61,180 bases of DNA from Candidatus Limnocylindrales bacterium (lineage in GTDB: Bacteria; Chloroflexota; Limnocylindria; Limnocylindrales; CSP1-4): positions 1 through 61,180 of the forward strand of contig DASXTH010000072.1 in NCBI GenBank assembly GCA_036505555.1, written 5' to 3'. Every line of letters starts with the position of its first letter. The first letter of the stretch is position 1. The position numbers and the translations under genes are program-made. The notes beneath the pieces are model-generated. The model was not told the origin of the DNA and did not search any database. It was given only the letters and a program-made list of their open reading frames with translations. Positions 6,570 through 46,627 of this stretch are shown in pieces.

Positions 6570-6589
6570 GTCCACTCGGATGGGGTCGG

Positions 6590-8945: not shown

Positions 8946-10598
<1,653 letters not shown>

Positions 10599-26863: not shown

Positions 26864-27180
26864 GTCGCCGACACCCGCAGCTGGGTCACCAGGACCTGAA
26901 GAGGTGTGCCTGTGGGAACACAGATCGACGTCCCGCTCTGGACGACGACCGGTACGCCGCCGGCGAGCACCCGGGTCGCACCGACGACGAACTGGGCCGT
27001 CGCGCACGGCGGAGCGCTGGTCCCGGTCAAGGCGCAGCCGGCGATGACCCACGGCGACGTGAGCGTCACGACCGGCTGGCCGCCGAGGAGGACTCGCGGG
27101 TTGGGAGTCGTCGGCGTCGCCTGGCCGGCGTGAGCGCAGATGACGGTCGCCCCGAGCTGGACCGCGAAACCGGCCATCAC
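26860..27180 (-). CDS. PAAR-like spike-tip protein (DUF4280-type)
   Basis: 106 aa. Its pattern of conserved Cys and Gly residues (VICAHAGQ, RVLLGGQPV, AGC...PC, RVLAGGVPV, SICVP) is typical of PAAR-like cones. The start overlaps the gpV stop. Confidence 0.6.
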   Translation of the reverse strand: MMAGFAVQLGATVICAHAGQATPTTPNPRVLLGGQPVVTLTSPWVIAGCALTGTSAPPCATAQFVVGATRVLAGGVPVVVQSGTSICVPTGTPLQVLVTQLRVSAT

Positions 27181-27686
27181 ATCACGTCCAGGGCGCCGCT
27201 GTTGATGGAGACGCGGGGACCCTGAAGCTCGATCGTGCCGCCAAACCCGTTATCGATCTTCACGCCGATCGGGCTGAGGACCAGCTTCTGGCCGCTCGAC
27301 GTCTCCAGGGTGATGCCGCCGATCCCCGGTGTGTCGTCGAGGGTGATGCTCTGGCCGCCCCCGGTGACGATCATCAGCTTCTTGTATGGCGGGGCGATCA
27401 GGAGCGGCGGCATCTCCGCGACGGAGCCCCACCAACAGCCCGTCCAGATCGGGTAATCCGGGTTGCCATGCTCGAACTCGATCCAGATCCCGGCCCCCAC
27501 CGTCGGCAGGGCGAAGAACCCGGTCGAGCTGCCGCCGAACGGTGCGCACGGGAGCGCCCAGCCGCTCTCGTCGTCTCCAAGGACATCCTTGACCTTTGCC
27601 TTGACCCGGCCGGTCATCAGCGGGTCCTGGATGTCCGTGACGATCCCGCGGTACTTCCCGAAGAACGTCCCGCCGCCGGTGCTCAC
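27177..27686 (-). CDS. Baseplate spike, gpV / gp5 OB-fold family
   Basis: GTG start in a GTGA overlap with the gpD-like stop. GKYRGIVTDIQDPLMTGRVKAKV...SGWALPCAPFGG...PTVGAGIWIEFEHGNPDYPIWTG matches the Phage_base_V pattern. Confidence 0.8.
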   Translation of the reverse strand: MSTGGGTFFGKYRGIVTDIQDPLMTGRVKAKVKDVLGDDESGWALPCAPFGGSSTGFFALPTVGAGIWIEFEHGNPDYPIWTGCWWGSVAEMPPLLIAPPYKKLMIVTGGGQSITLDDTPGIGGITLETSSGQKLVLSPIGVKIDNGFGGTIELQGPRVSINSGALDVM

Positions 27687-28768
27687 GTCGGCACCATCGG
27701 GAGGAGCGAGCCCGTTCCGTCACGGGCGAGGCGGAAGCTCTGGGTGTACGAGCCCTTCGTGATCTCGTGGGTGACGCTCTTCACGTAGAAGACGCCGTCG
27801 TACGAGAAGCCGCTGCCGCGGACGCCCACCAGGCGGCGGGCACGAAGGACGGATCCGTAGCGGACCGTCTCGAGCTGGCCCTGGCCACTCACGGCCTCCG
27901 CTGCCTCCGTCGCCGCGGACGCCGACGAGAGGGCGGCCTGGGCCGGGTCCTCGTTGGCGCTCTCCCGGAGGAGAACCTTGCGTTGCGGGGTCGCCGGGAA
28001 CAGGGCGAGCGGCGGGACCCGGAGCGGGGGGAGCGCCGGGATCGGCACGACCATCTTCGTGATCGGCTCGACGAAGCCGCCGCTCGCCGACACCGGGGCC
28101 AGGGCGTCGTTCGAGAACGAGAGCTCCGTGACGTTCGTCGACGCACCCATGTTCATCGACAACGCCGGCTGGGGTAGACCTGCTCGGACGACCGGCCCCC
28201 AGTAGGCCTTGTTGACGCCGAACGTGATGGGCTCGATGTAGAAGACGTAGCCGTTGTCGCCGGCGAGCCGGCGGATGCAGGCGAGGTCCGTCTCGCGCTG
28301 CCGTGGGATCCGCTGGAGCTCGATCGGGACGCTGGTGGTCGGGCTGACCGCCGGCAGGAGGCCGTATTTCCCGTAGCCCGCAAGAAGGATGCCCACGATG
28401 ACGAAGTCCGGCTGGTTCTTCTTCGGGTCGTTCTTCTCCTCGAGGTCGAGCATCACGCTCAGATTCGTCCCGGTCACGGTGAGCGTCGATCGACCCGGCT
28501 CGTTGCTCGGCGTGATCGTGTGCTGGGTGATGATCCCGTCGATCAGGACCTCGGGAACGATGCCGAGGACGACGGCGATCCACACGCGGGTCATCGGGGC
28601 GAGGGAGCCGTCCAGGAGATCCCAGTCGGCGACGCCATCGTGGCCGAGCGCGAAGGTCAACTGGAACCCGTCGCCGCTGTCCTCGTCGTTCGTGACCTGG
28701 ACCCGCGTGAGCGCGGCGATCACGCCGGGCTTTGGTGGCGTCGGGATCGTGCTCCCGGTCCAGAGCAT
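27683..28768 (-). CDS. Baseplate hub, late control gene D (gpD)/VgrG-core-like protein
   Basis: Start is the ATG at residue 42 of ORF 27683..28891. An alternative GTG at 28798 is possible. The size, its position before gpV, and the N-terminus VQVTNDEDSGDGFQLTFAL fit gpD-like hubs. Confidence 0.7.
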   Translation of the reverse strand: MLWTGSTIPTPPKPGVIAALTRVQVTNDEDSGDGFQLTFALGHDGVADWDLLDGSLAPMTRVWIAVVLGIVPEVLIDGIITQHTITPSNEPGRSTLTVTGTNLSVMLDLEEKNDPKKNQPDFVIVGILLAGYGKYGLLPAVSPTTSVPIELQRIPRQRETDLACIRRLAGDNGYVFYIEPITFGVNKAYWGPVVRAGLPQPALSMNMGASTNVTELSFSNDALAPVSASGGFVEPITKMVVPIPALPPLRVPPLALFPATPQRKVLLRESANEDPAQAALSSASAATEAAEAVSGQGQLETVRYGSVLRARRLVGVRGSGFSYDGVFYVKSVTHEITKGSYTQSFRLARDGTGSLLPMVPT

Positions 28769-28809
28769 CAGCCGGATCCCCGCCTCGCTCGTGAACACCC
28801 GATGCCTGC

Positions 28810-29109
28810 CTACGGCCTGGGCATGACGACGTCCACGATCCGACCCGGACGCTCGAGCTCCTCGGGACGGAGGACATCGTTGCCATCGCACAGCCGCCAG
28901 AACGCGAGTGGATCCCCGGCGAAGCGGGCGGCCAGGAGGTCGAGGCGGTCGGCGTCGGTCATGACGTGCTCGGTGACGACGGTCAGCGAGTCCGGCCGGG
29001 GAAGAAATCGGCGCCGCTTGAAGCGCACGGTGCGAAGGCTCCCGTCGGGCTGCGCGACCTCCATCGCGGCGTCGTCGATGCTGGCGTAGCGGCTCTGGGT
29101 CTCGAACAT
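28810..29109 (-). CDS. LysM-like / gpX-like small baseplate protein
   Basis: 99 aa, with the ATG 2 nt after the upstream stop. HVMTDADRLDLLAARFAGDPLAFWRLCDGND resembles the tail protein X / LysM motif (h.v..GDrLD.lA.r.yGd....W.ia..N). Confidence 0.6.
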   Translation of the reverse strand: MFETQSRYASIDDAAMEVAQPDGSLRTVRFKRRRFLPRPDSLTVVTEHVMTDADRLDLLAARFAGDPLAFWRLCDGNDVLRPEELERPGRIVDVVMPRP

Positions 29110-29111: not shown

Positions 29112-29792
29112 CTACCCGCCGATGCTCATGCTCGCCGAGAACGAGGCCGAGCCGGAGAGGGCGCCACCGACCGCGGTCGCACCCGAGATCGTGGCCATGA
29201 CCTCCTTGATGACCTGGTGAGCGAGGAACAGCCCGCCCCCGATGCTCAGGAGTCCGAGGTCGTCGTAGGTCAGGACACGGAGGGACAGGTTGACCTTCGC
29301 CCGGATCGGGTTCAGCGCCGGATCGAAGGCCTCTTCGGTGATCGATAGCTGGGTCAGACGGACGGGGACCACGCGCTTCAGGCCCCAGACGAACAGGGTC
29401 AACGGCGCTTCAGGCGGGATGACCTCGATGATCCCGAGCGCGGCGAGCACCTCGTTGGCGATCACGAGCGCCGACTTCGGGTAGAGGAGCATCTCGAGCG
29501 ACGCGAGCGACGGAGCGACCCCGAACTGTCCCGTGATCGCGTCGCCGCGCTCCATCTGATCGGCGGCGTCGACCTCGACTTCGAGCGCGATCGTCTCCTC
29601 CGGCGGGCCTTTCAGCCGGAGCGCCTCCGACTGCGACCCGTCGCCTCCGCCGCCGCCGGCCGCCCGCGCCTGGACGGTCCGGGTCAGGGTGTCGGGGTTG
29701 TACTGGAAGATGACGACGCTGGCGAGCGGGTTCGCCGGATCAAGCCCGATGATCGCGCCCTTCAACAGCCGCGGCGAACCGGGAAACGTCAT
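29112..29792 (-). CDS. CIS tube-initiator-like protein (Afp7 N-terminal-domain type)
   Basis: 226 aa. VVIFQYNPDTLTR, APLTLFVWG and LNPIRAKVNLSLRVL match the pattern I recall for the contractile-injection-system tube/initiator family. Confidence 0.6.
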   Translation of the reverse strand: MTFPGSPRLLKGAIIGLDPANPLASVVIFQYNPDTLTRTVQARAAGGGGGDGSQSEALRLKGPPEETIALEVEVDAADQMERGDAITGQFGVAPSLASLEMLLYPKSALVIANEVLAALGIIEVIPPEAPLTLFVWGLKRVVPVRLTQLSITEEAFDPALNPIRAKVNLSLRVLTYDDLGLLSIGGGLFLAHQVIKEVMATISGATAVGGALSGSASFSASMSIGG

Positions 29793-29866: not shown

Positions 29867-30193
29867 TCAGCCGGCCTGCGCGTCGATCGTCACTTCGAAC
29901 CGGTCGCCGACGGCGTCGCGCTCCCACGATCGGCGGTTGACGAACGTCAGCGCCGTCTCTCCGGGTCCGATCACCGCGATCCGGAAGCGCCGCGAGCCCG
30001 CTGCGCCGAGGCGCTCATGGTCCGGCCCAACGAACGTGCGGTCCCGCAGAGCCACGATCGAGTCGTCGAACGCCTCAAGGGCCCATCGGTAGCCCGAGGT
30101 CGGCGTCTCGTCGAGTGCGACGACGAGCTCGTCCCCGACGGTCACCGTCTGCAATGTGCCTGCCTCGGCCAGGCCGATCTCGATCTCCGCCAT
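29867..30193 (-). CDS. Chagasin-family (I42) cysteine-peptidase inhibitor, no signal peptide
   Basis: 108 aa. The three chagasin loop motifs are present: ETPTSGYRW (NPTTGYxW), LGAAGSRRFRI (GxGG) and NRRSWERD (RPW). Confidence 0.75.
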   Translation of the reverse strand: MAEIEIGLAEAGTLQTVTVGDELVVALDETPTSGYRWALEAFDDSIVALRDRTFVGPDHERLGAAGSRRFRIAVIGPGETALTFVNRRSWERDAVGDRFEVTIDAQAG

Positions 30194-30221
30194 CCCGTCC
30201 GGCCCTCGCTGCCTGTCGGGC

Positions 30222-31049
30222 TCAGTGTGGCAGCTCCGCGGCGCAGCATGCCTCGCCGGCGTTCGCCAGGAGGCTGGCGAAGTCGGAGCGCTTCATCCGG
30301 AAGCGGCCGTTCTGGCCCCAGCTGCCACCCCACGAGTTCTGGAAGACGTAGGTGTCGTCGGCGTCGACCTTCTCGAGCATGAGGTAGCAGTGGCCGCCGG
30401 CGACGCTGCCGGTCGGCTTCACGAGCCCGTTCGCGTCCGGATCGAACATGTCGTCCGTCCAGGCTGTCCCGACGACGACCGGCCCATGGTTGTTGATCCA
30501 GTCGTCGATCTCGTTCGTGTTCTGCGCGAACGCGAAGGCGGCGAGGCGGCCACGGTTACGGAGCGCGAGGGCGCCGGACCGGACATACGAACCGTTCTCC
30601 GCCAAGGGCTCCCCGTCGATCACCTTGCACTCGTAGTAGAGCGCGTGACCATCCGCGTTCTGGTAGTTGCCCTCGACCGGCATGGCGTCGACCCAGCCGG
30701 CCCAGCCGAAGCCAACGCAGTGGCCGGTCTGGCCCTGATCGAGCTGGATCTTCAACTCCCAGCCCGGCGTGGTGTCACCGGGCGGCATCGGCTGCGGCTT
30801 CCGCTTCTGCCGCTTCAGCCAGCGCCAGAAGACGAGGTAGTTGGGCCAGGTCGAGAAGTAGGGCGTCTGGTCGAGGACCTGCTCCACGGTCATCTGCAGC
30901 GTCGCCTCGCCCGGCTCGGCGAGCTCCATCAGCTTCGCGATCGACCAGTCGCGCGGGTCCGGCTTGTAGATCCGGCCGAGCAGGTGGCGGCCGAGCGTCA
31001 GCGCGGCGCTCCGCGGTGGCGGATCGATGGCGAGCTCACGGGGTTCCAT
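30222..31049 (-). CDS. Papain-like cysteine protease (C1 family), no signal peptide
   Basis: ATG with GAGGA upstream. Catalytic layout: DQGQTGHCVGFGW (Gln and Cys111), AGGHCYLMLE (His220), FQNSWGGSWGQNGRFRM (Asn238-Ser-Trp). Confidence 0.8.
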   Translation of the reverse strand: MEPRELAIDPPPRSAALTLGRHLLGRIYKPDPRDWSIAKLMELAEPGEATLQMTVEQVLDQTPYFSTWPNYLVFWRWLKRQKRKPQPMPPGDTTPGWELKIQLDQGQTGHCVGFGWAGWVDAMPVEGNYQNADGHALYYECKVIDGEPLAENGSYVRSGALALRNRGRLAAFAFAQNTNEIDDWINNHGPVVVGTAWTDDMFDPDANGLVKPTGSVAGGHCYLMLEKVDADDTYVFQNSWGGSWGQNGRFRMKRSDFASLLANAGEACCAAELPH

Positions 31050-31154
31050 CGCAGGGTCCTCAGCGGCTGGCGCGACGGACCGTCGCGGCCCAGGTCAGGT
31101 GAGGCTAGAGGCCGGTCGTCACGTCCGCGTCACGACGGCGTCACCCGCAAGCGT

Positions 31155-32972
31155 TCAGAATCGCAGGCTGCCGACGCCAAGGACGGTGACTCGGCTGGCG
31201 TCCGTGCCGATGAGCGCCCTCCCTTCGACACCGAGCTCGAGCCGCTCCCATCGATACCCGGCTCCGACGGATCCAGAGAGTCCTCCCACGACCTCTGCCC
31301 CGGTGCCTGGCCCTCGGTCGGGCGCCGGTAGGGCGATGCCTACGAAGCCACCGGCTCGGACGTCCCCATAGAACCCGCGCAATGGTTGCTGGATGCGAAC
31401 GCCGATCTCACCCAGCGCAGCCGCCACGTGGCCGGCGGATGGTCCCCCTCCCGGCAGATACAGGAGGTGAGCTCCGAGGCCAGGGTTGATGACGACCATT
31501 TGGTCCGAGCGGAGCGCGATTCGAAGACCCAGGCCAATGGCCGCCCGCGTCGTGGCGGGCTCGAACGACGCTCCGCCGCGAAGTTCGAGACCGAGCCGAC
31601 TTCCGGACCTGGACTCGCCCGACTGCGCGGCGGTTGGGTCCACGACGGACGGCCCCGGCGGGAATGTCGCGCCCCGGACGGCCGCACAATCGAGTGTCCG
31701 GTTTTCTACCTGACCCTGTGCGGCATCGATCCCGAGCCCGAGCGCGGCATTGACGCGGGTGGCGAGGCCCGAGTGCGGTCCGCGGAGCCCGAGCCAGACC
31801 CATCGCTTGAACACCTGCCGGTGAATTGGGTGTGTCGCGATCACCGCACGGTGGTAGGCGGCGATCCGCGTAACACTTCGCTCCCTCACGGGATCGCTGA
31901 CCGTGGATCGCTCGAAATAGTCGTTCAAGGGGCCGAACTGGGACATGTGGTCGATGTAACACGCGTTGGTTCGGACCAGAACCGTGTACAGGCGATGGAA
32001 CTCGCGGACGAAGCTGCTGGTCCATGCGTCGACCTCAGACTCATCGCCTCGGAGACTGCTTCCGGTCTCGTACTGACGAACGTGGTCGACCTCATGATTG
32101 ACGGTGACCCGAGTCGCAAAGAAGTTGTCGGGTTCGAGTGCCGGCGGTCCCAGAACGACGTAGTTCTGGCTCCCATGGCGGAGGGTGTAGCCGGCATCGC
32201 GCGAAAGGGAACGGTGGTCCGATCCGGCGGCTCTCTTGGTGCCGAGTCCGTCGTCGTAGTTGATGACGTGCGAACTCACATCGAAGGCAACGAGGTGGGC
32301 GGCATCCGGATAGCGGTCGCCCTCGCTGGCGGTGGTGCGATCGACCACCCGCCATCCAATGGCCTCGTGCACGAGGGCTGCTCGATCCGCGGAGGTTGTT
32401 GCCGCCCCGACCCGAGCGGCCCAGTCGGCAGGGGCGCCGGTTGCTGCTGGTCCGACCCGTGAGTCGCGCTGGATCACCGGTGCGCGGTCACCGCTGTCGT
32501 CCGTCTGACCTTCTCGGGCCAGCCGCTCGGCCTCGTCGTCGGGAGGCCCGATGACATGCGACCATTGCCGTGCGCGCGCTTGTTGAGTGACGTGCGCAAG
32601 CTCGTGGCGGAGCAGGTCGCGTCCAGACCCGGCGTCGGCGTCGAACTGCGAGCGACCGAACACCACGTGATTCCCGACCGTGAAAGCCCGAGCCCCAAGT
32701 GATTCCGCGGCATTCGCCGCGGTCGAGTCAATATGAATTCGAACGCTTGCGAACTCGTGCCCGGCGGGCACGGGAGCCATCCCGCGGATCGAGCCAGGCA
32801 GGGGCATGCCAGGCTGGTCGAGCACTGACCTCACGGCCGGGTGAGTGCGCCGCGCCGCTGTCAGGCGATCGCCTGGGCTGAATCCGCCCGACTCCGCCGC
32901 GCGGGCAAGACTGCTCATCGGCGCTGACCCGTCGCCGCGATTCGCGCCGCCGACTGCGCGATAGCTCCACAT
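31155..32972 (-). CDS. DUF4157-type zincin protein with a second HExxH region and a C-terminal amphipathic beta-barrel-like domain
   Basis: FASVRIHIDSTAANAAESLGARAFTVGNHVVFG...LLRHELAHVTQQ matches the DUF4157 signature. A second motif NHEVDHVRQ lies at aa 292-300. The last ~150 aa form alternating hydrophobic strands ending in LRF. The start is ambiguous: ATG 32972 or ATG 32918. Confidence 0.75.
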   Translation of the reverse strand: MWSYRAVGGANRGDGSAPMSSLARAAESGGFSPGDRLTAARRTHPAVRSVLDQPGMPLPGSIRGMAPVPAGHEFASVRIHIDSTAANAAESLGARAFTVGNHVVFGRSQFDADAGSGRDLLRHELAHVTQQARARQWSHVIGPPDDEAERLAREGQTDDSGDRAPVIQRDSRVGPAATGAPADWAARVGAATTSADRAALVHEAIGWRVVDRTTASEGDRYPDAAHLVAFDVSSHVINYDDGLGTKRAAGSDHRSLSRDAGYTLRHGSQNYVVLGPPALEPDNFFATRVTVNHEVDHVRQYETGSSLRGDESEVDAWTSSFVREFHRLYTVLVRTNACYIDHMSQFGPLNDYFERSTVSDPVRERSVTRIAAYHRAVIATHPIHRQVFKRWVWLGLRGPHSGLATRVNAALGLGIDAAQGQVENRTLDCAAVRGATFPPGPSVVDPTAAQSGESRSGSRLGLELRGGASFEPATTRAAIGLGLRIALRSDQMVVINPGLGAHLLYLPGGGPSAGHVAAALGEIGVRIQQPLRGFYGDVRAGGFVGIALPAPDRGPGTGAEVVGGLSGSVGAGYRWERLELGVEGRALIGTDASRVTVLGVGSLRF

Positions 32973-32993
32973 ACGGGCGAGCGATCATCAGCC

Positions 32994-35078
32994 TCAGGCA
33001 TTGGCGTAGATGGTCGTGCACTGAGCATCCGTCAATGGCACGACCGCGCGGCCCGAGAAGGGGCTCATCAGGTTAGCCGCCGGGTGCGCGCCCGAGTTCA
33101 GCAAGGTGTGGCCGATCTCGTGGGCGAGGTCCTCGCGCGTGGTGACGTTGCGAAGGACGACCATCCCACGCAATGGCGCTGCTGGTCCAGTCGCGCAGAA
33201 GGCCGGAACCGAATAACCCCCCGCACCCGATCCGCTGAACGTCGCGGGATAGAAGGCCCGAATTGGGGCGGTCAGCCCGAACGTGGCCGTCGCTCCGTTG
33301 AAGAGCGCACGCTCCTCGGCCGTCGCCGCACCACAGCTGGGCGACGTAGCCAAGTCCGTGTTGCCACCGAGCCATGTCGTCGTCTGGGCGTTTGTCGCCG
33401 TGGCGTTCACACCGTGCCGAATTCCGACGTCGCACTGTTCGAGAATCGAGCTCGCGACCGCAACGTCGGCCGATGGCGTATGGGTGGATCCATCCAGTTT
33501 CACGGTATCAACCGTGACCGTCTTCCGGGGTTGGGCCCTGGCCGCGGCGGGGGGCACCAGGGCGACGGTGGCGGCGACAAGGCCGAGCATCAGATTCGCC
33601 CGCTGGAGGCTCGCAGTCTGGGCGGCCGATGGCGTGGCGGGCGCTGAACCCAGCGCCGTCCGCACAACGGCCAGGATGGCCGCGCCATCGCGCTGGACCG
33701 CGAGAAGCGTGATGTCGCGGTTCACCAAATTGTCCATGAACGCGAGCGCAACATCGAAGCCGTCCGGTCCGAGCTGCTGGAAGGCTGTCCGGACGAAGGG
33801 CAACTCGGCGACCGTATTGGTCAAGGCGCGAGCGGCCAGGTGGATCCCCCGAGCAAGCGCTGTCGGTTCGCGAACGAGGAACGCAGCTACGTCGGCTGCG
33901 AGGGTAGGAGGAGCCGCGCCGGTCGCGCTGGCACGCGTATCGAGGAGGGGGGCGAAGGCCGGATCGAATGCCGCGGCAAGGGCCTGGATTTGCTGGGGAT
34001 TCAGGGTCGCGATGCCGGTCAACTCCTCGATCTCGGCTGGTAGTGGGAAGCGCAATCCGGCCCGCCAGCGCGACATGTCTGGCAATCCCAGGTAGAACTG
34101 GTTGTAGACCATGAGAGCTTGGGCAAGCTCCAGCTCCGAGATGACCGCGAGCGGCTGCGGCACGCCGCCCGTCGGCGTGAACGGAGTGGCCGTCGTCCAG
34201 AGGGGAAGGAGTACTTGTGCGAGCATCCGAGGCGTCAGGTTCGCTCCGATGATCACGTCGAGGCGGCTCGAGCCGGTCGAGATCAGGCCGCCCTGGACGG
34301 TCACGGGGCCGACGCGAGTGTCGGTGACGTTGGTCGGAACGAACTGGATCCCCGTACGCGGCGTAGTGCCGAGCAGGCGGACGTAGCCTACGGCGGCCGG
34401 ATCGGCCCGCGCGACGAGCGTGCGCCCCGAAGCCCACGAATCGAACCGGGTATCGATCGGACCGGCTCGGTTCGATCGGGTGGCCTCGTTGCTGACTTCC
34501 TTGGCCTCGCGTTCGGCCGGACTGCTGGGATCGTCCAGCTCGGGCTCCGCCTCGGACGCGATGCGTCCACCTTGTTGGACGACATGCGTGAGCTCGTGGG
34601 CGATGAGCCGTCGGCCTCGTTCGGACGTTGGCTGGAACGCGCCCGCTCCGAAGACCACATCCCGGCCGCTCGTGTAGGCGATGGCGTGGATCGACGCAGC
34701 CGAGTGGGCCGCGGACGGCCCTTCGTGGATCCGAACCGCCGCGAAATCGTGTCCGAGCGCGCGCTCCATCGACGCTCGGATCCGCGGTTCGAGCGGGCGA
34801 CCATTTGAGTTGATCCCCTCCCGGACCGCTTGACCGAGGTGCGCGGGGGGCAGAGTCCCGGAGACGGGGCTGCGCTGAACACGGTCGGCGTTGTCGTGAT
34901 CGCAGGTTCCCGATGGGCAACGAATGGCGCCACAACCCTGCACGAGTGGACGAACCGCTCGAGCGGCCGGCCGGATCGTGATCGGTGGAACGGATCCAAG
35001 AGCACGCGACTCGGCGCGCGCGGGCCGGGAGTAGATCATGGGACCGCCGGCCTTGACGTCGGCAAACGTCTGGGTCAT
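32994..35078 (-). CDS. DUF4157-type zincin protein with a large uncharacterised middle region and a C-terminal second zincin motif
   Basis: DFAAVRIHEGPSAAHSAASIHAIAYTSGRDVVFG...RLIAHELTHVVQQ matches the DUF4157 signature. The C-terminus carries LAHEIGHTLLNSGAH...NLM. Start chosen at ATG 35078; ATG 35039 is also possible. Confidence 0.7.
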   Translation of the reverse strand: MTQTFADVKAGGPMIYSRPARAESRALGSVPPITIRPAARAVRPLVQGCGAIRCPSGTCDHDNADRVQRSPVSGTLPPAHLGQAVREGINSNGRPLEPRIRASMERALGHDFAAVRIHEGPSAAHSAASIHAIAYTSGRDVVFGAGAFQPTSERGRRLIAHELTHVVQQGGRIASEAEPELDDPSSPAEREAKEVSNEATRSNRAGPIDTRFDSWASGRTLVARADPAAVGYVRLLGTTPRTGIQFVPTNVTDTRVGPVTVQGGLISTGSSRLDVIIGANLTPRMLAQVLLPLWTTATPFTPTGGVPQPLAVISELELAQALMVYNQFYLGLPDMSRWRAGLRFPLPAEIEELTGIATLNPQQIQALAAAFDPAFAPLLDTRASATGAAPPTLAADVAAFLVREPTALARGIHLAARALTNTVAELPFVRTAFQQLGPDGFDVALAFMDNLVNRDITLLAVQRDGAAILAVVRTALGSAPATPSAAQTASLQRANLMLGLVAATVALVPPAAARAQPRKTVTVDTVKLDGSTHTPSADVAVASSILEQCDVGIRHGVNATATNAQTTTWLGGNTDLATSPSCGAATAEERALFNGATATFGLTAPIRAFYPATFSGSGAGGYSVPAFCATGPAAPLRGMVVLRNVTTREDLAHEIGHTLLNSGAHPAANLMSPFSGRAVVPLTDAQCTTIYANA

Positions 35079-35178
35079 CGGTCGCCCGTCGGCTTCCGAG
35101 CCGCCCAGGGGACGGCGTTCAGCTGGTACGCATCCCGTCGCGTGAACGGCTGGCTGGCGGCGCGGCACCGCCGCCGTT

Positions 35179-35198
35179 CGCATCTCTCCGCAGATGCG
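35179..35198. other. 7-bp palindromic hairpin in the 300-nt non-coding gap inside the cargo island
   Basis: CGCATCT (35179-35185) pairs with AGATGCG (35192-35198) across a 6-nt loop. It lies about 100 nt upstream of the 35078 start. Function is unknown. Confidence 0.3.
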
Positions 35199-35378
35199 GC
35201 CTCAACGGGAACGCTCAGCGAACGTGCGCGGAGGCTCGACGCAGGGGCGGGCGTGCGACCTTGAGCCGTTGTCCGCTGGATCGGCGTCATGCATGTCGTC
35301 ATCACTCGTCCCCGAGCCCGCGGCCGCGCAGTGCGGTGGCAACGGCCCTGCCGATCTCCGCGCCGAGCACCGACGTGC

Positions 35379-37844
35379 CTAGAGGTCCGGAAGGACATCG
35401 GTCAGGATGGCCTCGACCTGGCGGACGATGGCCTGTCGTTCCAGGTCCACTCGCTCACGATCGAGCCGCGTCTGCTGCGCGAGAATCGCAGCGGCAGGTG
35501 ACTGGTTCGGATTCGGTAGGCGGCGCGCGAGGAAGGGAACGTGGAGATGGCCGAAGTGAATCTTGGATCCCGCTTGGGTAGCCAGCAGTCCGACCCGATA
35601 GAAGATCTCGTTCGAGAGGTAGCTTCCTCCTGAACCCGCCACGGACGTCGAGCCCGGCGTGGGCCCCTTGAGCGAAGGGGTCACCTTCGACGACCCCGGA
35701 ACTCGCTCCATGATCTCCAGTTCGCCCCGCGTTGGAGCGGGCTTCTGCGGCCTCAACGTGCGGCGAGCCGACGGGGGGAGGGTCCCGCGGATGAACTCAG
35801 GTCCGGCTGGAAGGCCCGGGGCCGCTCCGGCCGTCGCGGGGGTCACGCCCGGGTTGTCTGGCGTCCCAGCGCCGCGGGTCCGGCCGGCCCACTCCTCGAC
35901 CTCGTAGGCAGGTCCGGCGTTCATGCTGATCGTCATGATCATGTCGGCGTGGCCCGGGCCTGACAGATACGCCGCGAACAGTTGCTCCACGATCCGCTCG
36001 TCGAAGGCCCGGAAGCTCACCGGAAAGACGACGCTTTCGACCGACCCCTTGATCGATCCGCTCGTCAGCTGACGACCATCCAGCGCGAGCGCCGCCGCAG
36101 CGGACGGATTGGTGGCCTCGGACAACCCGTAGTCACGCCGCTCGAAGCCGAACGGATCGAAGCCGCTGATGACAATCCGTTTCGTGCTGTTCGGGCCCGC
36201 GAATCGAGCCGCCAACATGCCGCGGGACGCTCGCTCGAGGAGCTGGTTCAGGTCGTCGCGCCGGGCTGCCGTCAGTCCGAATCGCGGCTGCCATTGGTCG
36301 AGGGTCCGGCGGAGCTGGACGCGAGCCCAGTAGAGAGGGCGGTCGTCAGTGCTGCCCGCGCGCGCGGCGGCGGTCGCCTGCGTCCACAGGCCGCGTCCGA
36401 CCGTCTCGACGGCCGTTCGCGCCGCTGCGAGGGACCGCGCCCGGTCGAGCGCGTTCGCGAGCCGCGGGATCGTCGATTCCAGGCCGGAGCGCGCGAGATA
36501 GGTCGAGCTCATGGATGGGACGTTGGCGGCGGCGGGACGCGACGGCTGCGATCGCGCTGCTTCCCGGCCGGGCGGCACGCCAGCGAAGCCGCATCGCGGG
36601 ATCGGCAGGATCGTCCCGCTTCGACCGGCGGCCAGCTCCTGTGGGGTAAGCCTCCGGCCATACGCCTGGCGGAACGCCTCGAGTTCCTCGGCACGCGCTC
36701 GAACGCGCGCCGGATCGGGGCGCTCACCGTCGAGAGGCGCATACGTCGCCGTGACGTAGTCGCTCTGCCACTCGCGGGTGAGATCCGGATCGTTGCAGTC
36801 GGGTCGAGCGAACCCGCGGACCTCGACGTGGGTCTGTCCTCGGGGCCTGGCGCCACAGAAGATTCGCCGTGCCGTCTCCCTCGGCAGGCGGACGCAGCCA
36901 TGGGACAGCGGAGCGCCGGTCACGGTGGTGTGTTGGTGAAGGGCCATCCCTCGGAACCCCAGGAATGTGTTCCAGAACTCCCACGTGTTGTGCGTACGCT
37001 CCGTATCAGTGATCGTGTAGGTGGAGCCGATCGCCGTCGCATTGCTTCCATCGCGCCGCGATTCGGCGACGGAGGCGGTCGTGCCCGGCGGCCCGCCGCC
37101 TACGACGCAGCAGTGCCCCTTGCCCGTCGAAGCGACCGACGACGAGACCGTCCTGTCGCTCCAGTGGAGCGTCACGGATTGCGGTCTTTCCTGATCGACG
37201 ACGATCTTCCTCAGCCACGGATCGCGGTCGGCTGCCGCGCAATCCGGTGAGTTCGCGGCCTCCCAAGTTCGCCGGAGGCGTCCGGCCGGTTCGGCCGACA
37301 CCGCGGTCAGAGACCCTTGGGCGACCCGCTCCGCTTCGAGCTCGTCATTGTCCTCAGGGCGGCTCATCGACAGTGCTCCGCCGGCTGGGGCGTGGCCGGC
37401 CTGCTGGACGACGTGGGCCAACTCATGCGCAAGAAGGCGTTGGCCATCGGGCGTGCCAGGCTGGAATCGTCCCCAGCTGAAGACGACGTGCGAACCAACG
37501 GTGTAGGCCCGGGCGGCCACGTCCCTCGCCGATGCCGCAGCCCCGGCGTCCGTATGGATCCGGACGTGATCGAACCGATGACCGATGCGCGCCTCCATTT
37601 GAGACCGGATCCCGCGATCGAGCCTGTTTCCCGGCGTAGCCAGCGTCGCACCGACGGAGGGCGGGATCGTCGCCGGACCCAGTCCGGTTCGAAACCGGTC
37701 GAGACGCCCATCCGGCTGGCCGCAGCCGCCGGCCGGACACGGATGATCCCCGCAGCGCTGGAGACGACGACCGGAGATGAGCCGCACGGGGCTCGTGCGA
37801 ATGCCCGCCGTGGAGATGCGCGGGGCGCATGCGGCCGAGGTCAT
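35379..37844 (-). CDS. Three-module protein: DUF4157 zincin + YkuD-type L,D-transpeptidase-like domain + pyroglutamyl-peptidase (C15)-like domain
   Basis: ATG at residue 26 of ORF 35379..37919, in an ATGA overlap with the upstream gene. HRFDHVRIHTDAGAAASARDVAARAYTVGSHVVF...LLAHELAHVVQQ matches the DUF4157 signature. ALHQHTTVTGAPLSHGCVRLP matches the YkuD signature. KRIVISGFDPFG...NPS...YEVEEWA...GGSYLSNEIFY...GHLHVP fits a C15-like layout. Confidence 0.75.
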   Translation of the reverse strand: MTSAACAPRISTAGIRTSPVRLISGRRLQRCGDHPCPAGGCGQPDGRLDRFRTGLGPATIPPSVGATLATPGNRLDRGIRSQMEARIGHRFDHVRIHTDAGAAASARDVAARAYTVGSHVVFSWGRFQPGTPDGQRLLAHELAHVVQQAGHAPAGGALSMSRPEDNDELEAERVAQGSLTAVSAEPAGRLRRTWEAANSPDCAAADRDPWLRKIVVDQERPQSVTLHWSDRTVSSSVASTGKGHCCVVGGGPPGTTASVAESRRDGSNATAIGSTYTITDTERTHNTWEFWNTFLGFRGMALHQHTTVTGAPLSHGCVRLPRETARRIFCGARPRGQTHVEVRGFARPDCNDPDLTREWQSDYVTATYAPLDGERPDPARVRARAEELEAFRQAYGRRLTPQELAAGRSGTILPIPRCGFAGVPPGREAARSQPSRPAAANVPSMSSTYLARSGLESTIPRLANALDRARSLAAARTAVETVGRGLWTQATAAARAGSTDDRPLYWARVQLRRTLDQWQPRFGLTAARRDDLNQLLERASRGMLAARFAGPNSTKRIVISGFDPFGFERRDYGLSEATNPSAAAALALDGRQLTSGSIKGSVESVVFPVSFRAFDERIVEQLFAAYLSGPGHADMIMTISMNAGPAYEVEEWAGRTRGAGTPDNPGVTPATAGAAPGLPAGPEFIRGTLPPSARRTLRPQKPAPTRGELEIMERVPGSSKVTPSLKGPTPGSTSVAGSGGSYLSNEIFYRVGLLATQAGSKIHFGHLHVPFLARRLPNPNQSPAAAILAQQTRLDRERVDLERQAIVRQVEAILTDVLPDL

Positions 37845-38650
37845 GACGAAGCCGCGCATTCGATGAAGTGCGCCCACGCGTCGACGTTCTTCGACTGATC
37901 CCCGCGGAGGTTGTCGCACGGGTCGTGACAGTCCACGCGCGGGGTGCAGTAGTTCTCATCGCCGGTGACGGAGGAGTCGATGCCAGCGGCATGGCCGGCC
38001 TCGTGGATGAGCGTTCGCCGCATCTGGCCCGCCGAGGTTGCGAAGATCCGCGGGCACAGCACCATCGTCGAGAGATCGTCCGTGACGCGCGCCGCGACCT
38101 CCGGATCACGGCATGGCGCATCGCCACACCCGGCAACTTCGATCGGAACGGAGTCGAGTTTCTGTCGGATGGAGGCGACGCGCGAAGATGCACGCCCGGC
38201 ATCGATGTTCGTGTGAAAGACCCGGGTCGCGACGGTGTCCAGATAGCGATCACCGCGGCCCAGGGCCTGGTACGCCCGCGACGTCGTACTCCGAGCTGCC
38301 CATCGGACAGCGTTCATCCGCTGCGACTCCTGCGGCGTGAACGGCCTGCGGGTCGGAGACGAATCGACGTCCTGGCCCACGCACAGCAGCTCGCGGAGCG
38401 CCTGTCGGGTCGGATCCGTCGGAGGTGGCTCCTCATCGGGGCCGCCCTCCGCCAGCCTCGCGCGGAGGGGCGACGCGATCGAGAAGTGCCGCAGGACGTG
38501 GTTCGCCCCGCGGCACGGTCGATGGATGCCCTCCGCCGTCTCAGCCGGGGCCGGAACCGCCAGCAAGGCCAGTCGTCCGCCCCGCGCCGGCCCTAGCGCC
38601 CGTGGCAGACGTGGTGCCCTGGTCATCGGCGCCATGCAGGCCGTCATCAC
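37841..38650 (-). CDS. Aspzincin (M35-like) metallopeptidase-domain protein
   Basis: RRTLIHEAGHAAGIDSSVTGDENYC aligns with HExxH followed by the aspzincin GTxDxxYG motif at its T, D and Y positions. The start is GTG 38650 (GTGA overlap) or ATG 38647. Confidence 0.6.
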   Translation of the reverse strand: MMTACMAPMTRAPRLPRALGPARGGRLALLAVPAPAETAEGIHRPCRGANHVLRHFSIASPLRARLAEGGPDEEPPPTDPTRQALRELLCVGQDVDSSPTRRPFTPQESQRMNAVRWAARSTTSRAYQALGRGDRYLDTVATRVFHTNIDAGRASSRVASIRQKLDSVPIEVAGCGDAPCRDPEVAARVTDDLSTMVLCPRIFATSAGQMRRTLIHEAGHAAGIDSSVTGDENYCTPRVDCHDPCDNLRGDQSKNVDAWAHFIECAASS

Positions 38651-38967
38651 AGGAGGCCCTCGGCGGCGCGCCGCACCGCAGCGTCGACGGCGCCGGCGAT
38701 CCCGGTGCCGACCATCGAGGAATGTTGGGCGCCAGAACCGAGGTCCAGGCGCGTGCGGACAGCGTCCAGCGCCACACCGGCTGGCGGGGCGGCGTTGCCA
38801 AACGTCGCGAGCCTCGCTCGCAGCTCCGTCTCCACGGCCCGACCGACGACGTGGCCGTCGACCGTACCCAGGCCGTTGAGGACCAGCCGGTCGATCTCGA
38901 CCGATACGACCGTGGGGTGACGCCCGGGGACACCACGGCGCCTATCGCGACGGCCGATCAGGCCCAC
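38647..38967 (-). CDS. Small conserved-looking hypothetical protein (106 aa) linking the ATPase gene to the cargo genes
   Basis: GTG start with GGAGG 6 nt upstream, overlapping the ATPase 3' end by 10 nt. Its stop overlaps the next start. The frame is GC3-rich and carries no known motif. Confidence 0.5.
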   Translation of the reverse strand: MGLIGRRDRRRGVPGRHPTVVSVEIDRLVLNGLGTVDGHVVGRAVETELRARLATFGNAAPPAGVALDAVRTRLDLGSGAQHSSMVGTGIAGAVDAAVRRAAEGLL

Positions 38968-40949
38968 CCCGCCACCTCCGTCTCGGTCAGCGTCCGCTCC
39001 AGCTTCGCGTACTCCGTTCGGGTCGCGCGGAGCAGATGGGCCATGCCGATCGGCCGGCCGGCCTCGGCGGCCAGGAACGCGGCGTTCACCGCGATGTTCC
39101 GGATGTTGCCGCCGGCGACGTTGAGCCGCGCGAGTCGTGCCGCTTCCACGCCGTCCGTGGGCGCAGCCGGCGGGAACGCTCGCCGCCAGATCTCCGCCCG
39201 CGCCGCCTCGTCCGGGAACGGGAAGTGAACCGTGAAGCGGATCCGCCGGAGGAACGCCGGGTCGATGCTCTCCTTCAGGTTCGTCGTGAGGATCGCGAGG
39301 CCACGGTAGGCCTCCATGCGCTGCAGCAGGTAGCCGACTTCAATGTTCGCGTAGCGGTCGTGGCTGTCCTTGACCTCGCTGCGCCTGCCGAAGAGCGCGT
39401 CGGCCTCGTCGAAGAGCAGGATCGCCCCGCCGTCCTCCGCGGCGTCGAAGACCCGGCGCAGGTTCTTCTCGGTCTCGCCGATGTACTTGCTGACCACCTG
39501 ACTCAGGTCGATCCGGTACAGGTCGAGGCGGAGCTCGGTCGCGAGGACCTCGGCCGCGAGCGTCTTGCCGGTCCCGCTCGCGCCGACGAACAGCGCGGCG
39601 ATCCCGAGACCCCTGGCGCTCGTCGCGCCAAACCCCCAGCGGTCGTACACGAGCGTCCGGTGACGGACCTGGAGGGCCAGCTCGCGGAGGGTCTCGAGAT
39701 GGCCGACGGGCAGGACCAAATCCGACCAGCCCGCTCGAGCGTCCACACGCTGGGCCAGATCGTCCATGCGCGGCCGCGCCTGGCCACGGCACGCGTCCCA
39801 CAGCGCGCGGCCCAGGGCCGTCGGATCGGCGCCGCCCACCTCCCCCGCGGCCGCGACCTCGGCCAAGGCTTCGACGCTCGCCTCCCGGATCCCGCGGATC
39901 CCGAGGTCGAACTGCGAGGCGAGGCGATCGCCCTGGCCGTCGAGCCGATCGGGGCCGACCAGCGACTGCCACACCTCGAGCTGCTCGCCGCTGGTCGGCT
40001 TTGCCACGTCAAGCGCGAGCATCGGGCGTGCGCGCGTCGGTCGGCGATCGCGGATCAGGAGGATCAGGGCCGACGACAGTCCCTCGACGACTTGGGAGAT
40101 GGCGGCATCGCGAGCCGAGTCGTGACCCTCGACGCCGTCGCAGTCCAGGATGAGGGCGGTTCCAGCGAGCGCAGCCTCCCGTTCGCAGAGGCGGACGAGG
40201 GCGTCCAGCTCGCGGGGTTCGACGGGCAGGGACTCGGCCCGGACGATGGCCAGGCGCATCCCGAGCAGGATCGCGGCGACCTCCGCGACGAGGCGCTTGC
40301 TCGAGCCGTCCGGTCCGCACAGCTCGATGACCGGCGGCGGTTCTCCGGGCGGCCGATCCGTCCAGGCATGGACGATGCGGTGGGCGAGCTGCTCGTGGGA
40401 GGGCACGACGTCGAGCTCGGACGCACGTTGGGACAGCGGCTCGAGGTACCCGGCCAGGCGGTCGTCGACCGCGTCGATCCCGACGAGGTGATGGAGCACG
40501 CGCTCGTCGATCCGCAGCGCGCTTGTCGCGAGCGGCCCGGCCGCGGGCTCGACGAGCCGCCAGCGGCGCAGCGGCGCATTCGGCGCGAGCGCGCTCCAGT
40601 GGGCATCGGGCAGCGCCGCCAGGGCGAGGCTGAAGGTCGCGTGGGCCCGGCCCGGATCGCCCTGGGCCCGAGCGCACAACTCGCCAACGGACGCGTCGAG
40701 CTCGACACCGGCGCACAGAACCAGCACGTCGCGCTCGAAGGCCGACAGACCGAAGGCCGCGACGACCTGGTCGAGCGCGGCGGGGCGATCGGAGAGCGCC
40801 GGGTCCGCCGCCACATCGGTTCGCGGGACGTCCGGCCCTGCCGAACCCCCGGACGCGTGGCGCTCAACCGCCGACCGGACCCCGCCGAGGGCCGCCTCGA
40901 GGCGCGCCTTGTTGGCCGCCGTCCACGCGTCGGCCTCGACGCCGATCAT
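38958..40949 (-). CDS. AAA+ ATPase of the eCIS Afp15 type
   Basis: 663 aa with a long N-terminal region and a single C-terminal AAA module. Walker A is GASGTGKTLAAEVLA and Walker B is ILLFDEADALFG. The SRH-like region is ILTTNLKESIDPAFLRRIRF. ATGA overlap with the DUF4255 gene. Confidence 0.9.
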   Translation of the reverse strand: MIGVEADAWTAANKARLEAALGGVRSAVERHASGGSAGPDVPRTDVAADPALSDRPAALDQVVAAFGLSAFERDVLVLCAGVELDASVGELCARAQGDPGRAHATFSLALAALPDAHWSALAPNAPLRRWRLVEPAAGPLATSALRIDERVLHHLVGIDAVDDRLAGYLEPLSQRASELDVVPSHEQLAHRIVHAWTDRPPGEPPPVIELCGPDGSSKRLVAEVAAILLGMRLAIVRAESLPVEPRELDALVRLCEREAALAGTALILDCDGVEGHDSARDAAISQVVEGLSSALILLIRDRRPTRARPMLALDVAKPTSGEQLEVWQSLVGPDRLDGQGDRLASQFDLGIRGIREASVEALAEVAAAGEVGGADPTALGRALWDACRGQARPRMDDLAQRVDARAGWSDLVLPVGHLETLRELALQVRHRTLVYDRWGFGATSARGLGIAALFVGASGTGKTLAAEVLATELRLDLYRIDLSQVVSKYIGETEKNLRRVFDAAEDGGAILLFDEADALFGRRSEVKDSHDRYANIEVGYLLQRMEAYRGLAILTTNLKESIDPAFLRRIRFTVHFPFPDEAARAEIWRRAFPPAAPTDGVEAARLARLNVAGGNIRNIAVNAAFLAAEAGRPIGMAHLLRATRTEYAKLERTLTETEVAGWA

Positions 40950-42175
40950 GGGACAGTGACAAGCGGATCCGTGATCACACCCGCTCCGTTCCGCACGAGG
41001 ACGCTGTCGGCTTGGTCGACGACCACCTGAACGGCGTGGCTCCCGGCCGCAACCCCGGCCATCGGGAACGACAGGCTCGTCGTGTCGCCGGATCGAGGCG
41101 GCCCGCTGATCACGTGTCGCCGCTGACCGGTCGCGGGGTCGAGGAGCAGGACATCGACGCGTTGGGACGCCGAGACCGTGACATCCGTCGTCGCGGTGAG
41201 GACCGGTCCGGCCGCCACCGCGACTGCGGCGATCGTCGGATGGAGAGCGAAGGTCGCGACGTTCGACTCGACTCCGTCGTGCTCGATGGGAGGAATGCCC
41301 AACAACGTCCGATGGACGACCTGGACGGTGGCCATCCCCGCCCGAAGCTCGGCAATCGGGACGGTCCCAAGGTCGAAGGGGATCCGGGCGTTCGTCCCGG
41401 CGGCGATCGGTCGATCGGACCCCGCGAGCCGGACGCGGGTCACGTCGCCGACCAATTCGCTCCCGAGGATGTCGATCGTGGTCGTTGCCGTGATCGGGGC
41501 CCTCGGATCGGGCGATGCCACGACCGCGGCGATGAGCGGGCGGCCCAGCCGCACCACGTGGACGTCGCGCTCGAGGACGGGCAACGGCGTCACCGTCGCC
41601 ACGTCCGGCTCGACGAGGACGACCGACGCCTGGTAGGCGACGGACAGCGCGTATGGGGTCTGGAAGAACACCGACCAGAGCTTGGACAGCTCCTCGAGGT
41701 TCATCGGCAGCGGGACGAACTTCACCCGCTCAACCTGATCGCCGAGGTCGGTTGCGGCCAGCGACGGGTGGACAGGCGGGCTGGCCGTCGCGGCGGTCTT
41801 GACGGCGGCGATCAGCTGGGGCGTCAGGAACGGCTGGGCGTGGAGCGTCCGGACCACGCTGCCGAGAAGCCGCTGCGGTTCGAGCTCCTCGTCGGCGCCA
41901 CTGAACGTGAACAGGTAATGCAGATCCAGCGCCGCCACCGGCCGCTGGAGGAGATCGCCTCCCGACGATCGGGTCGGGAGATCGGCGTTCCGCAGTGCCA
42001 CGTTCGGAACGACCTGATAGAGGTAGACGTTCACCGTCGGGGAGGACGTCCCGTTCGTCGAGGTCTCGGGTCGGTCGGTCGTCACGGTGGCGCCCGGGAC
42101 ATCGGCCCCGGCGGTCGCCTGAAGCAATCGATGGAGCGCGGCGGTGACCGTTGCCACGGCGAGGAAATTGCTCAT
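40946..42175 (-). CDS. DUF4255 (Pvc16/Afp16-like) tail terminator/cap protein with C-terminal Ig-like extension
   Basis: MSNFLAVATVTAALHRLLQ...VNVYLYQVVPNVALRNADLP is the characteristic DUF4255 N-terminus. ATGA overlap with the upstream gene. Confidence 0.8.
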   Translation of the reverse strand: MSNFLAVATVTAALHRLLQATAGADVPGATVTTDRPETSTNGTSSPTVNVYLYQVVPNVALRNADLPTRSSGGDLLQRPVAALDLHYLFTFSGADEELEPQRLLGSVVRTLHAQPFLTPQLIAAVKTAATASPPVHPSLAATDLGDQVERVKFVPLPMNLEELSKLWSVFFQTPYALSVAYQASVVLVEPDVATVTPLPVLERDVHVVRLGRPLIAAVVASPDPRAPITATTTIDILGSELVGDVTRVRLAGSDRPIAAGTNARIPFDLGTVPIAELRAGMATVQVVHRTLLGIPPIEHDGVESNVATFALHPTIAAVAVAAGPVLTATTDVTVSASQRVDVLLLDPATGQRRHVISGPPRSGDTTSLSFPMAGVAAGSHAVQVVVDQADSVLVRNGAGVITDPLVTVP

Positions 42176-43308: not shown

Positions 43309-43316
43309 CTGCGACC

Positions 43317-44051: not shown

Positions 44052-44055
44052 GGCG

Positions 44056-46513: not shown

Positions 46514-46627
46514 GCCGTCCTCCTGACGGCGCCCGCTCTGGCACCGTCTGCTTCGGCGGAAGGGTGGTCGACGATCCGTCACTGGACCATCACCGGCATG
46601 TCACCGCGATGCGCGTGCGGCCGCCCG

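Follow-up and report, generated by a model that had tools for sequence, protein, structure and literature searches.

The window analysed here is a complete contig of 61,180 bp (~70% G+C) from a metagenome-assembled genome (MAG) of Candidatus Limnocylindrales (Chloroflexota). On its minus strand, open reading frame (ORF) calls and Pfam place the operon of an extracellular contractile injection system (eCIS), and six genes in the middle of this operon (29867-38650) are probably a payload cassette that occupies the standard effector slot of this eCIS lineage. The ATPase gene is the conserved upstream boundary of the slot and the tube-initiator gene its conserved downstream boundary, while the content between them varies from locus to locus. 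An earlier note on this DNA had flagged seven consecutive minus-strand ORFs (29867-38967), between the ATPase gene and the CIS_tube gene, as non-structural genes separating the ATPase from the baseplate module; the ORFs, their strand and their position were confirmed, but the one adjoining the ATPase gene, of 106 amino acids (aa), belongs to the core of the system. The slot and its boundaries are as follows.

38958-40949, minus strand: AAA+ ATPase of the Afp15/Pvc15/Cis15 type (Pfam AAA 94.7 bits, WHD 70.5 bits)
38647..38967, minus strand: small ORF of 106 aa directly after the ATPase gene, with no Pfam or NCBIfam match
37841..38650, minus strand: aspzincin-like metallopeptidase of 269 aa, HEAGH at residue 216 and then TGDENY; candidate effector
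35379..37844, minus strand: DUF4157 protein of 821 aa, or 846 aa if read from a GTG at 37919
37392-37622, minus strand: eCIS_core domain of this protein (Pfam), aa 100-176 in the 846-aa numbering
36858-37208, minus strand: its YkuD domain (Pfam), aa 238-354 in the same numbering
35484-36188, minus strand: its Peptidase_C15-like domain (Pfam), about aa 578-812 in the same numbering
32994..35183, minus strand: DUF4157 protein of 729 aa (D729), eCIS_core at aa 130-206 (34566-34796)
32997-33539, minus strand: metzincin-like C-terminal domain of D729, about aa 549-729, with HEIGH-x7-H and a conserved Met
31155..32972, minus strand: DUF4157 protein of 605 aa (D605), eCIS_core at aa 57-134 (32571-32804)
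31656-32435, minus strand: HExxH domain of D605, aa 180-439, HEVDH at 293
31158-31598, minus strand: predicted C-terminal 8-stranded β-barrel of D605, aa 459-605, ending in ...LRF
30222..31049, minus strand: papain-family (C1) cysteine peptidase of 275 aa; candidate effector or processing protease
29867..30193, minus strand: chagasin-family (I42) inhibitor of 108 aa (Inhibitor_I42 70.2 bits, cut-off 27.2)
29112-29792, minus strand: tube initiator, the second tube-family gene (Afp5/Pvc5/SlpT2 type; CIS_tube 31.4 bits)

The evidence for cargo comes from gene order. A search with the ATPase gave 80 related loci (40-58% ATPase identity), which belong to two archaeal and many bacterial lineages and keep the order ATPase, small ORF, variable stretch, tube initiator and baseplate. 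The gap statistics are drawn from the 51 loci whose captured sequence includes the ATPase gene as well as the tube-initiator gene. The distance between the two genes runs from 239 to 9,424 bp (median 4.8 kb), the 9,166 bp of the window lying near the top of the range, and the gap holds from zero to five eCIS_core genes, always on the operon strand (at least one in 38 loci, none in 13). The earlier note had proposed a variable cargo island between conserved flanks, to be abandoned if homologous loci all kept the same genes; the comparison favours cargo, the flanks being kept and the content changing, with the 106-aa ORF as the exception. The C-terminal domains of the window cassette, its C1 peptidase and its chagasin are absent from the slots of the 51 loci, save for one weak aspzincin match; a locus outside this set, with no captured tube-initiator gene (L058), has a weak match to the zincin region of D605 (30% identity). 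No close relative of the window emerged from the GTDB scan (best ATPase identity 58%), and close relatives came solely from metagenome contigs. The mid-operon placement, which the earlier note took to be unusual and undescribed, is the normal effector position in this synteny group and has been published for Tme of Streptomyces davawensis, a protein encoded in the same slot that co-purifies with the spike and the tube initiator (PMC11126660).

One of the metagenome relatives, L086, shows how sharp the boundaries are. Its flanks are 85% (ATPase side) and 91.5% (tube side) identical to the window in DNA, its ATPase is 90% identical in protein sequence and its tube initiator 98% identical; DNA homology stops at ~38936, the end of the ATPase gene, and resumes at ~29844, the start of the tube gene. 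Between these points L086 carries a small ORF of 119 aa, a 431-aa D605 module, a C1 peptidase, a chagasin and an unrelated eCIS_core protein of 1,013 aa, in this order. The 431-aa protein corresponds to residues 179-605 of D605 (56% identity), without eCIS_core. Synonymous divergence (dS) between the two loci lies at 0.16-0.62 in the flanking genes and C1 and reaches 1.12 in chagasin and 1.71 in the D605 module that both loci have, and because it differs so from gene to gene the cassette is a mosaic built by recombination. Third-position G+C also points to a mosaic, being lower in the three DUF4157 genes (0.74-0.78) than in C1, chagasin and most flanking genes (0.87-0.93). By these comparisons the cassette evolves through module swapping, each module being found with or without DUF4157: L086 has the D605 module by itself, and the aspzincin is fused to eCIS_core in 17 of 51 scanned relatives of that protein.

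Two related slots (L001, L009) contain an extra, partial copy of the tube-initiator gene between their DUF4157 genes, which suggests that cassette exchange can run via recombination at this gene. When repeats, internal promoters and terminators that could mark a mobile element were sought, counts were within chance, no repeats bounded the cassette and no internal terminators beyond chance were present in it. A direct repeat of 71 nt with 73% identity (35087 and 38282) was judged a chance occurrence in DNA of 70% G+C.

The exclusion of the 106-aa ORF from the cargo rests on its distribution. ORFs beginning at the ATPase stop codon in the 80 related loci were searched with phmmer and then jackhmmer, and homologues were found at or overlapping this stop codon in 59 of them, in many phyla, even where no more than 240-430 bp separate the ATPase from the tube initiator, which leaves room for nothing else. 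A small gene of ~60-170 aa, usually overlapping the ATPase stop codon, is conserved at this place (loci L001-L080), and L086, L090 and L140 likewise have a small ORF call behind the ATPase, the L086 one, which alone of the three was compared by sequence, being 43% identical over the first ~50 aa. Judged by this conservation, the 106-aa ORF is a core gene of this eCIS lineage and not cargo, and therefore the cassette proper has six genes, from 29867 to 38650. The family to which it belongs looks like a core component of the lineage that lacks a name.

Three of the six genes encode DUF4157-type proteins, as had been claimed. DUF4157, now called "eCIS core domain" in Pfam (PF13699), marks toxins (Geller et al. 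2021, PMC8213781; PMC11297309), and the earlier statement that it is enriched near eCIS loci was correct and even understated (PMC8213781, PMC8894135). PF13699 scores 103.4 bits in the 821/846-aa protein, 107.5 in D729 and 89.8 in D605, for a cut-off of 22, and all three share one layout, in which an N-terminal region is followed by eCIS_core and then by a variable C-terminal domain. Disorder-promoting residues make up 60-67% of their first 70 aa (judged from composition only); in published work, loading needs a disordered N-terminal domain and the ATPase, DUF4157 itself being dispensable (bioRxiv 10.64898/2026.05.27.728243). The PF13699 domains contain HExxH motifs (HELAH, HELTH and HELAH), and the island as a whole has six such motifs, the number given before, but in four proteins and not five, D729 and D605 having two each. 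Chance would give ~0.09 in the 2,938 residues of the island, and the 15 flanking proteins of the eCIS operon have none. Neither a Sec nor a Tat signal is recognisable, again as claimed: no island protein has a hydrophobic, signal-peptide-like N-terminus in a crude hydropathy scan (maximum Kyte-Doolittle value over 11 residues ≤1.65), the highest values, in chagasin and the 106-aa ORF, belonging to charged strand-like segments and not to signal-peptide h-regions, and none has a twin-arginine motif. Apart from a marginal stretch in D729, no transmembrane-like segments occur in the slot proteins, nor do Pfam matches to nucleases or tape measures.

Two observations on these proteins stand by themselves. 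A Cys motif, (L/V)Q(R/G)CG-x3-CP-x-G-x-C, precedes eCIS_core in the 821-aa protein and D729 (about 37700-37760 and about 34870-34930, minus strand) and in the 1,013-aa protein of L086, is missing from D605, and is reflected as QR-x-C-x-C in the consensus of the D729 family; possibly this is a small element that binds metal within the loading region. Public gene calls are shorter than ours for the 605-aa gene (397 aa at NCBI, 541 aa at JGI) and the 729-aa gene (591 aa at JGI and in Logan), and these starts cut into or remove eCIS_core, so automated annotation would miss the link to DUF4157.

The gene of the 821-aa protein starts at an ATG overlapping the upstream stop codon (ATGA), and its product carries two domains that the earlier note had not seen. 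The YkuD match (PF03734) is marginal (23.5-25.2 bits, cut-off 23.4) with an intact SHGCVRL motif, and the combination of eCIS_core and YkuD also occurs in Kribbella. The Peptidase_C15 match is stronger (32-36.3 bits, cut-off 22.7); aligned with pyroglutamyl peptidases, the domain retains the Glu and His and has a Ser in place of the catalytic Cys (FVCN vs YLSN, in YLSNE). For a shorter call of this gene on a contig 99.8% identical (L087), the Pfam table also lists PF27118 (PA0049_N), a family that is not in the Pfam copy searched here.

D729 would be a fragilysin/ADAM-like metzincin, if its predicted structure is right. Its C-terminal part of 525 aa has at least 200 homologues with 48-66% identity, PF13699 is present in 116 of the 120 listed, and the residues invariant in the family include H484, E485 and H488. 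The earlier note had proposed AlphaFold and Foldseek comparisons; for D729 and D605 these gave matches for a metzincin and a barrel, whereas the middle domain of D729 and the zincin of D605 stayed without a match. In the AlphaFold2 model of D729 (predicted local distance difference test, pLDDT, 86.7) the last ~180 residues match fragilysin, ADAM-8 and archaemetzincin (E 2e-4 to 7e-3, probability 1.0), while the middle domain, although conserved, matches nothing in Foldseek. In the zinc motif, HEIGHTLLNSGAH, the third His lies two residues beyond that of the canonical HExxHxxGxxH, and a Met six residues later is nearly invariant. Fragilysin, the metzincin (M10C) toxin of Bacteroides fragilis, and ADAM are thus the best structural matches and share the HExxH, the third His and the Met with D729, but the spacing to the third His is 7 instead of 5, TM-scores are modest and identity is 10-20%. 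A homologue of D729 is the sole slot gene in Kribbella kalugense, and in Mucilaginibacter another lies beside CIS_TMP and the ATPase in a cluster of different gene order.

For D605 the model (pLDDT 83.5) predicts an unclassified zincin joined to an OmpA-like β-barrel, which might serve as its anchor in the membrane of a target. The α/β HExxH domain is modelled with confidence and, as said, has no Foldseek counterpart in the PDB. The barrel, of eight strands of 9-17 residues with the C-terminus ...SLRF, matches OmpA, OprF, Ail, NspA and OmpX (probability 1.0, TM-score on target up to 0.75, 4rlc). The family of this module is rare, with 23 proteins in which H114, E115, H118, E134 and D136 are invariant; the barrel is present in 15 of the 22 aligned sequences (the window protein included) and missing in seven, and in an Armatimonadetes MAG the slot contains a D605 homologue and no other gene. 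Searched in isolation, the C-terminal segments of D729 and D605 have no Pfam match at E up to 1, and NCBIfam adds nothing. We found no description of a β-barrel eCIS effector in the literature, which is weak evidence of absence. The predicted OmpA/OmpX-like barrel sits on a signal-less DUF4157 protein in a genome of the Chloroflexota, which are usually regarded as lacking an outer membrane.

The first cassette gene after the small ORF encodes the aspzincin-like protein. The call is weak for the window protein itself, whose Aspzincin_M35 score (PF14521, 22.9 bits) is below the Pfam cut-off of 30, and holds at the level of its family: an exhaustive search gave 145 relatives, and 41 of the 51 scanned match Aspzincin_M35 at E <1e-3, the 17 mentioned above having an N-terminal eCIS_core. 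The HEAGH is followed by VTGDENYC, which fits T-x-D-x-x-Y (aspzincin pattern GTxDxxYG). No match was obtained in a sequence search of the PDB. Homologues 59-61% identical occupy the same slot in L093 and L096, where a DUF4157 gene comes next, and we infer that this protein is an effector module used without a DUF4157 domain of its own.

The last two genes form a pair. That the first is a C1 peptidase with a Cys/His/Asn triad was borne out (Peptidase_C1 32.6 bits, cut-off 20.7), the His and Asn region being covered by an alignment to cathepsin B and the Cys being read from the motif GHCVGFGW, as the N-terminal half lies outside the alignments; GGHCY and NSWGGSWG are also present. It has 424 homologues at E ≤ 0.001, the best 120 listed being 48-93% identical, and is 94% identical to the L086 gene (dS 0.27). 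The second is a chagasin-type inhibitor, as proposed, with the loop motifs PTSGYRW, GAAG and RSWE kept in both the window and L086. The window chagasin is 46% identical to that of L086 (dS 1.12, dN/dS 0.37), where the C1-chagasin pair lies at 10001-11222, and this allele appears to have been swapped or to be diverging far faster than its protease. In metagenome loci with a C1 identity of 66% or more and ~150 bp or more of sequence downstream, chagasin follows C1 by ~5-60 bp, with two exceptions (L110, L111), and across these loci C1 is 66-94% identical while chagasin is only 35-54%. Adjacency is conserved in 18 loci with sequence downstream of C1, and neither protein has a hydrophobic N-terminus. 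The chagasin is presumably a cognate inhibitor or immunity protein of the adjacent C1, and the two may be a protease-inhibitor pair, resembling an effector with its cytoplasmic immunity protein, that was recruited into the slot. A literature search found no paper that ties chagasin to contractile injection systems or to immunity proteins, again weak evidence of absence.

The remainder of the operon is listed here in the same direction.

46657-47493, minus strand: BTAD regulator
44594-46582, minus strand: sheath (Pfam Phage_sheath_1/1C)
44056-44574, minus strand: gp19-type tube (Pfam Phage_T4_gp19)
43317-44141, minus strand: T4_baseplate-like protein
42172-43356, minus strand: Pro-rich protein with a conserved C-terminus, adjoining the cap gene
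40946-42175, minus strand: Pvc16 cap (Pvc16/DUF4255; Pfam Pvc16_N)
28810-29109, minus strand: ORF of 99 aa between the tube-initiator and gpD-like genes
27683-28891, minus strand: gpD-like ORF, no Pfam match; called by position and tblastn (37-59% identity to the syntenic gene in related loci)
27177-27686, minus strand: VgrG (Pfam Phage_base_V)
26860-27180, minus strand: PAAR-like ORF, no Pfam match; called by position and tblastn to syntenic genes
26504-27052, minus strand: gp25 (Pfam GPW_gp25)
24079-26502 and 21338-24592, minus strand: two baseplate-J-like proteins (Pfam Baseplate_J)
about 19017-21400, minus strand: fibre-region protein
14677-19005, minus strand: DUF6519 protein

The eCIS gene set is thus complete in one cluster (sheath, tube, cap, ATPase, VgrG-like, PAAR-like, gp25 and baseplate J), and proteins of the window have exact matches in NCBI (HEY3163388-HEY3163400). 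The ORF at 28810-29109 has no family assignment and is conserved, at 99-100 aa, also in L086, L087, L090 and L140. A further toxin cluster at the 3' end was looked for beyond the operon within the window and is ruled out, because housekeeping genes lie directly downstream (UbiA, a pyridoxal-phosphate enzyme, phosphoenolpyruvate carboxykinase and malate dehydrogenase). Past these, ~7 kb from the operon end, the minus strand encodes a trypsin-like protein and two large subtilases of family S8, of 848 and 1,143 aa and with PA domains (609-7570). A decayed copy of the same operon is found in L092 (ENA contig_54991, 1-20828), where frameshifts break the sheath, tube, cap, ATPase, tube-initiator, gpD, VgrG and baseplate genes, and C1 (87% identical) and chagasin are intact.

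Several points weigh against reading the six genes as payload. Particle production, loading and toxicity at this locus are all predictions from sequence, and the lack of signal peptides is the outcome of the crude scan described above. The D729 family is as conserved across phyla (48-66%) as structural genes, which is atypical of a fast-swapping toxin; the confidence of the D605 barrel is only moderate (pLDDT 52-83 per 10-residue block); and the C15-like domain departs from the canonical Glu-Cys-His triad of pyroglutamyl peptidase I. The conservation of D729 bears on the idea that DUF4157 proteins are structural or assembly parts, tape-measure-like or spike-associated scaffolds, and not delivered toxins. 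The slot is indeed the tape-measure position of phage tail operons, the domain bears the name "eCIS core", tape-measure proteins are among the relatives of Tme, which binds the spike and the tube initiator (PMC11126660), and D729 is 51% identical to its counterpart in the Kribbella locus, a rate of divergence similar to that of structural proteins (43-66%). We nevertheless find this idea quite improbable, given that 13 of the 51 related slots do without such a gene and that copy number reaches five, that the C-terminal parts of the DUF4157 proteins are unrelated enzymatic domains, and that AlgoCIS particles form without Cgo1 and Cgo2, with inner tubes mostly empty (PMC8894135); the Pro-rich protein beside the cap gene is moreover a better tape-measure candidate. 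It is hardly credible that these genes are ordinary secreted or cell-wall-remodelling peptidases of the host that lie in the operon by chance. The contig does hold other protease genes, the two S8/PA subtilases and the trypsin-like gene, and YkuD enzymes are normally housekeeping enzymes of the cell wall, but PF13699 is highly specific to eCIS (odds ratio 2,614, PMC8213781), signal peptides are not apparent in the island proteins, start and stop codons overlap within the cassette where terminators were not found, and distant phyla have these modules in the corresponding slot.

The C1-chagasin pair deserves separate consideration, as it also occurs without eCIS genes nearby: within 10 kb there are none in L091, where it lies beside an IS110 transposase and a PIN/PhdYeFM pair, and the same holds for L110, L111, L114 and L130. 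This too counts against payload, and its presence here may therefore be incidental or reflect another role. The pair could be a self-contained mobile protease-inhibitor module that landed in the slot or that acts in the producer, where inhibitor-gated processing of the N-terminal loading region of DUF4157 proteins, or lysis and particle release, would be conceivable roles. C1 has no DUF4157 domain, its third-position G+C is host-like (0.93), and its family is very conserved (66-94%) and reaches Micromonospora and Plantactinospora. Against this, most pairs of the closest clade, that with a C1 at least 83% identical, lie inside eCIS slots beside DUF4157 genes (window, L086, L092, L093, L096 and L104); it is retained in L086, although the other slot genes there differ in content and order and only the DUF4157-less D605 module is shared; and adjacency to DUF4157 genes itself predicts eCIS toxins (PMC11297309). 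We regard a non-payload role for this pair as possible, if on the unlikely side.

If the six genes are payload, they would be co-transcribed with the particle genes, and the ATPase would recognise the three DUF4157 proteins through their N-terminal region, by analogy with AlgoCIS, PVC and the Streptomyces systems. These proteins would come to lie in the tube lumen or at the tube-initiator/spike complex and would leave the particle when it contracts. The aspzincin-like and C1 proteins might be loaded in trans, and chagasin would shield the producer from C1. In the target, the YkuD domain of the 821-aa protein might attack or remodel peptidoglycan, alongside a C15-fold domain with a Ser nucleophile. 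The YkuD domain and the OmpA-like barrel hint at a bacterial, possibly diderm, target; eukaryotic targets would also be compatible with the fragilysin/ADAM-like and papain-like domains.

The payload reading leaves the current picture of eCIS biology unchanged, its functional statements all being predictions, but it would be of use. The two sharp boundaries of the slot can serve for automated payload mining, and the cassette supplies candidate effectors (YkuD/C15-like, fragilysin-like, zincin-barrel, aspzincin and C1). Its natural boundaries suggest insertion points for foreign cargo genes, and modules found in nature with and without DUF4157 bear on the question of what this domain does. Real potential for novelty is confined to the barrel effector and the C1-chagasin pair, both of them predicted. 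That both should turn out to be new kinds of eCIS effector, one a DUF4157-zincin-OmpA-like barrel and the other a papain protease checked by a chagasin, strikes us as unlikely. Were it so, the D605 barrel, with its C-terminal signal (...LRF) of the type used by the β-barrel assembly machinery (BAM), would insert into the outer membrane of a diderm target, possibly through the BAM of the victim, and would anchor the protease or perforate the membrane; and C1-chagasin would be a protease-inhibitor form of effector and immunity in which the inhibitor allele is exchanged faster (dS 1.1 vs 0.27).

Several known systems resemble parts of this cassette. Tlde1, an antibacterial effector of the Salmonella type VI secretion system (T6SS), has an L,D-transpeptidase fold; like the 821-aa protein it carries a YkuD-fold domain, in its case as an injected effector that targets peptidoglycan, a likeness at the level of fold, and it differs in being delivered by a T6SS and in lacking DUF4157. 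With the eCIS-associated toxins (EATs) of Geller et al. 2021 and Danov et al. 2024 (PMC8213781, PMC11297309) the window shares a DUF4157 that is N-terminal or lies in a neighbouring gene, and among them peptidase-type toxins are a known class and toxin-immunity pairs stand beside eCIS operons. EATs lie mainly at the operon 3' end, however, whereas the payload proposed here is internal with nothing toxin-like after the operon, and neither a C1-chagasin pair nor an OmpA-like barrel effector was found among them in the searchable literature. AlgoCIS offers proven lumen cargo, Cgo1 and Cgo2, which leave on contraction (PMC8894135). It has the same succession of disorder-prone N-terminal region, DUF4157 and variable C-terminal domain, a C-terminal domain of Cgo1 also predicted to be a metalloprotease, and several cargo genes side by side in the cluster; it belongs to another eCIS lineage with another gene order, its C-terminal domains are unrelated, and loading is demonstrated there while it is inferred here.

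The closest parallel in gene order is the Tme cluster of S. davawensis, which belongs to a type shared across phyla and has Streptomyces relatives that are partly intracellular (PMC11126660). Also in Streptomyces, the DUF4157 protein Sle2 binds the tube initiator (PMC13277306). The window departs from the Tme cluster in having a six-gene, peptidase-rich cassette in place of one giant ORF, such as the 2,197-aa Tme-like DUF4157 ORF in the same slot of a Streptomyces locus (L076); its slot proteins have no transmembrane helices, tape-measure-like length or endonuclease domain, the largest ORF being of 821-846 aa, and its ATPase is only ~50% identical to those of Streptomyces. Yet the two clusters run alike, from sheath and tube through cap and ATPase to the DUF4157 effectors, the tube initiator and the baseplate, and in both the effector genes stand directly upstream of the baseplate genes.

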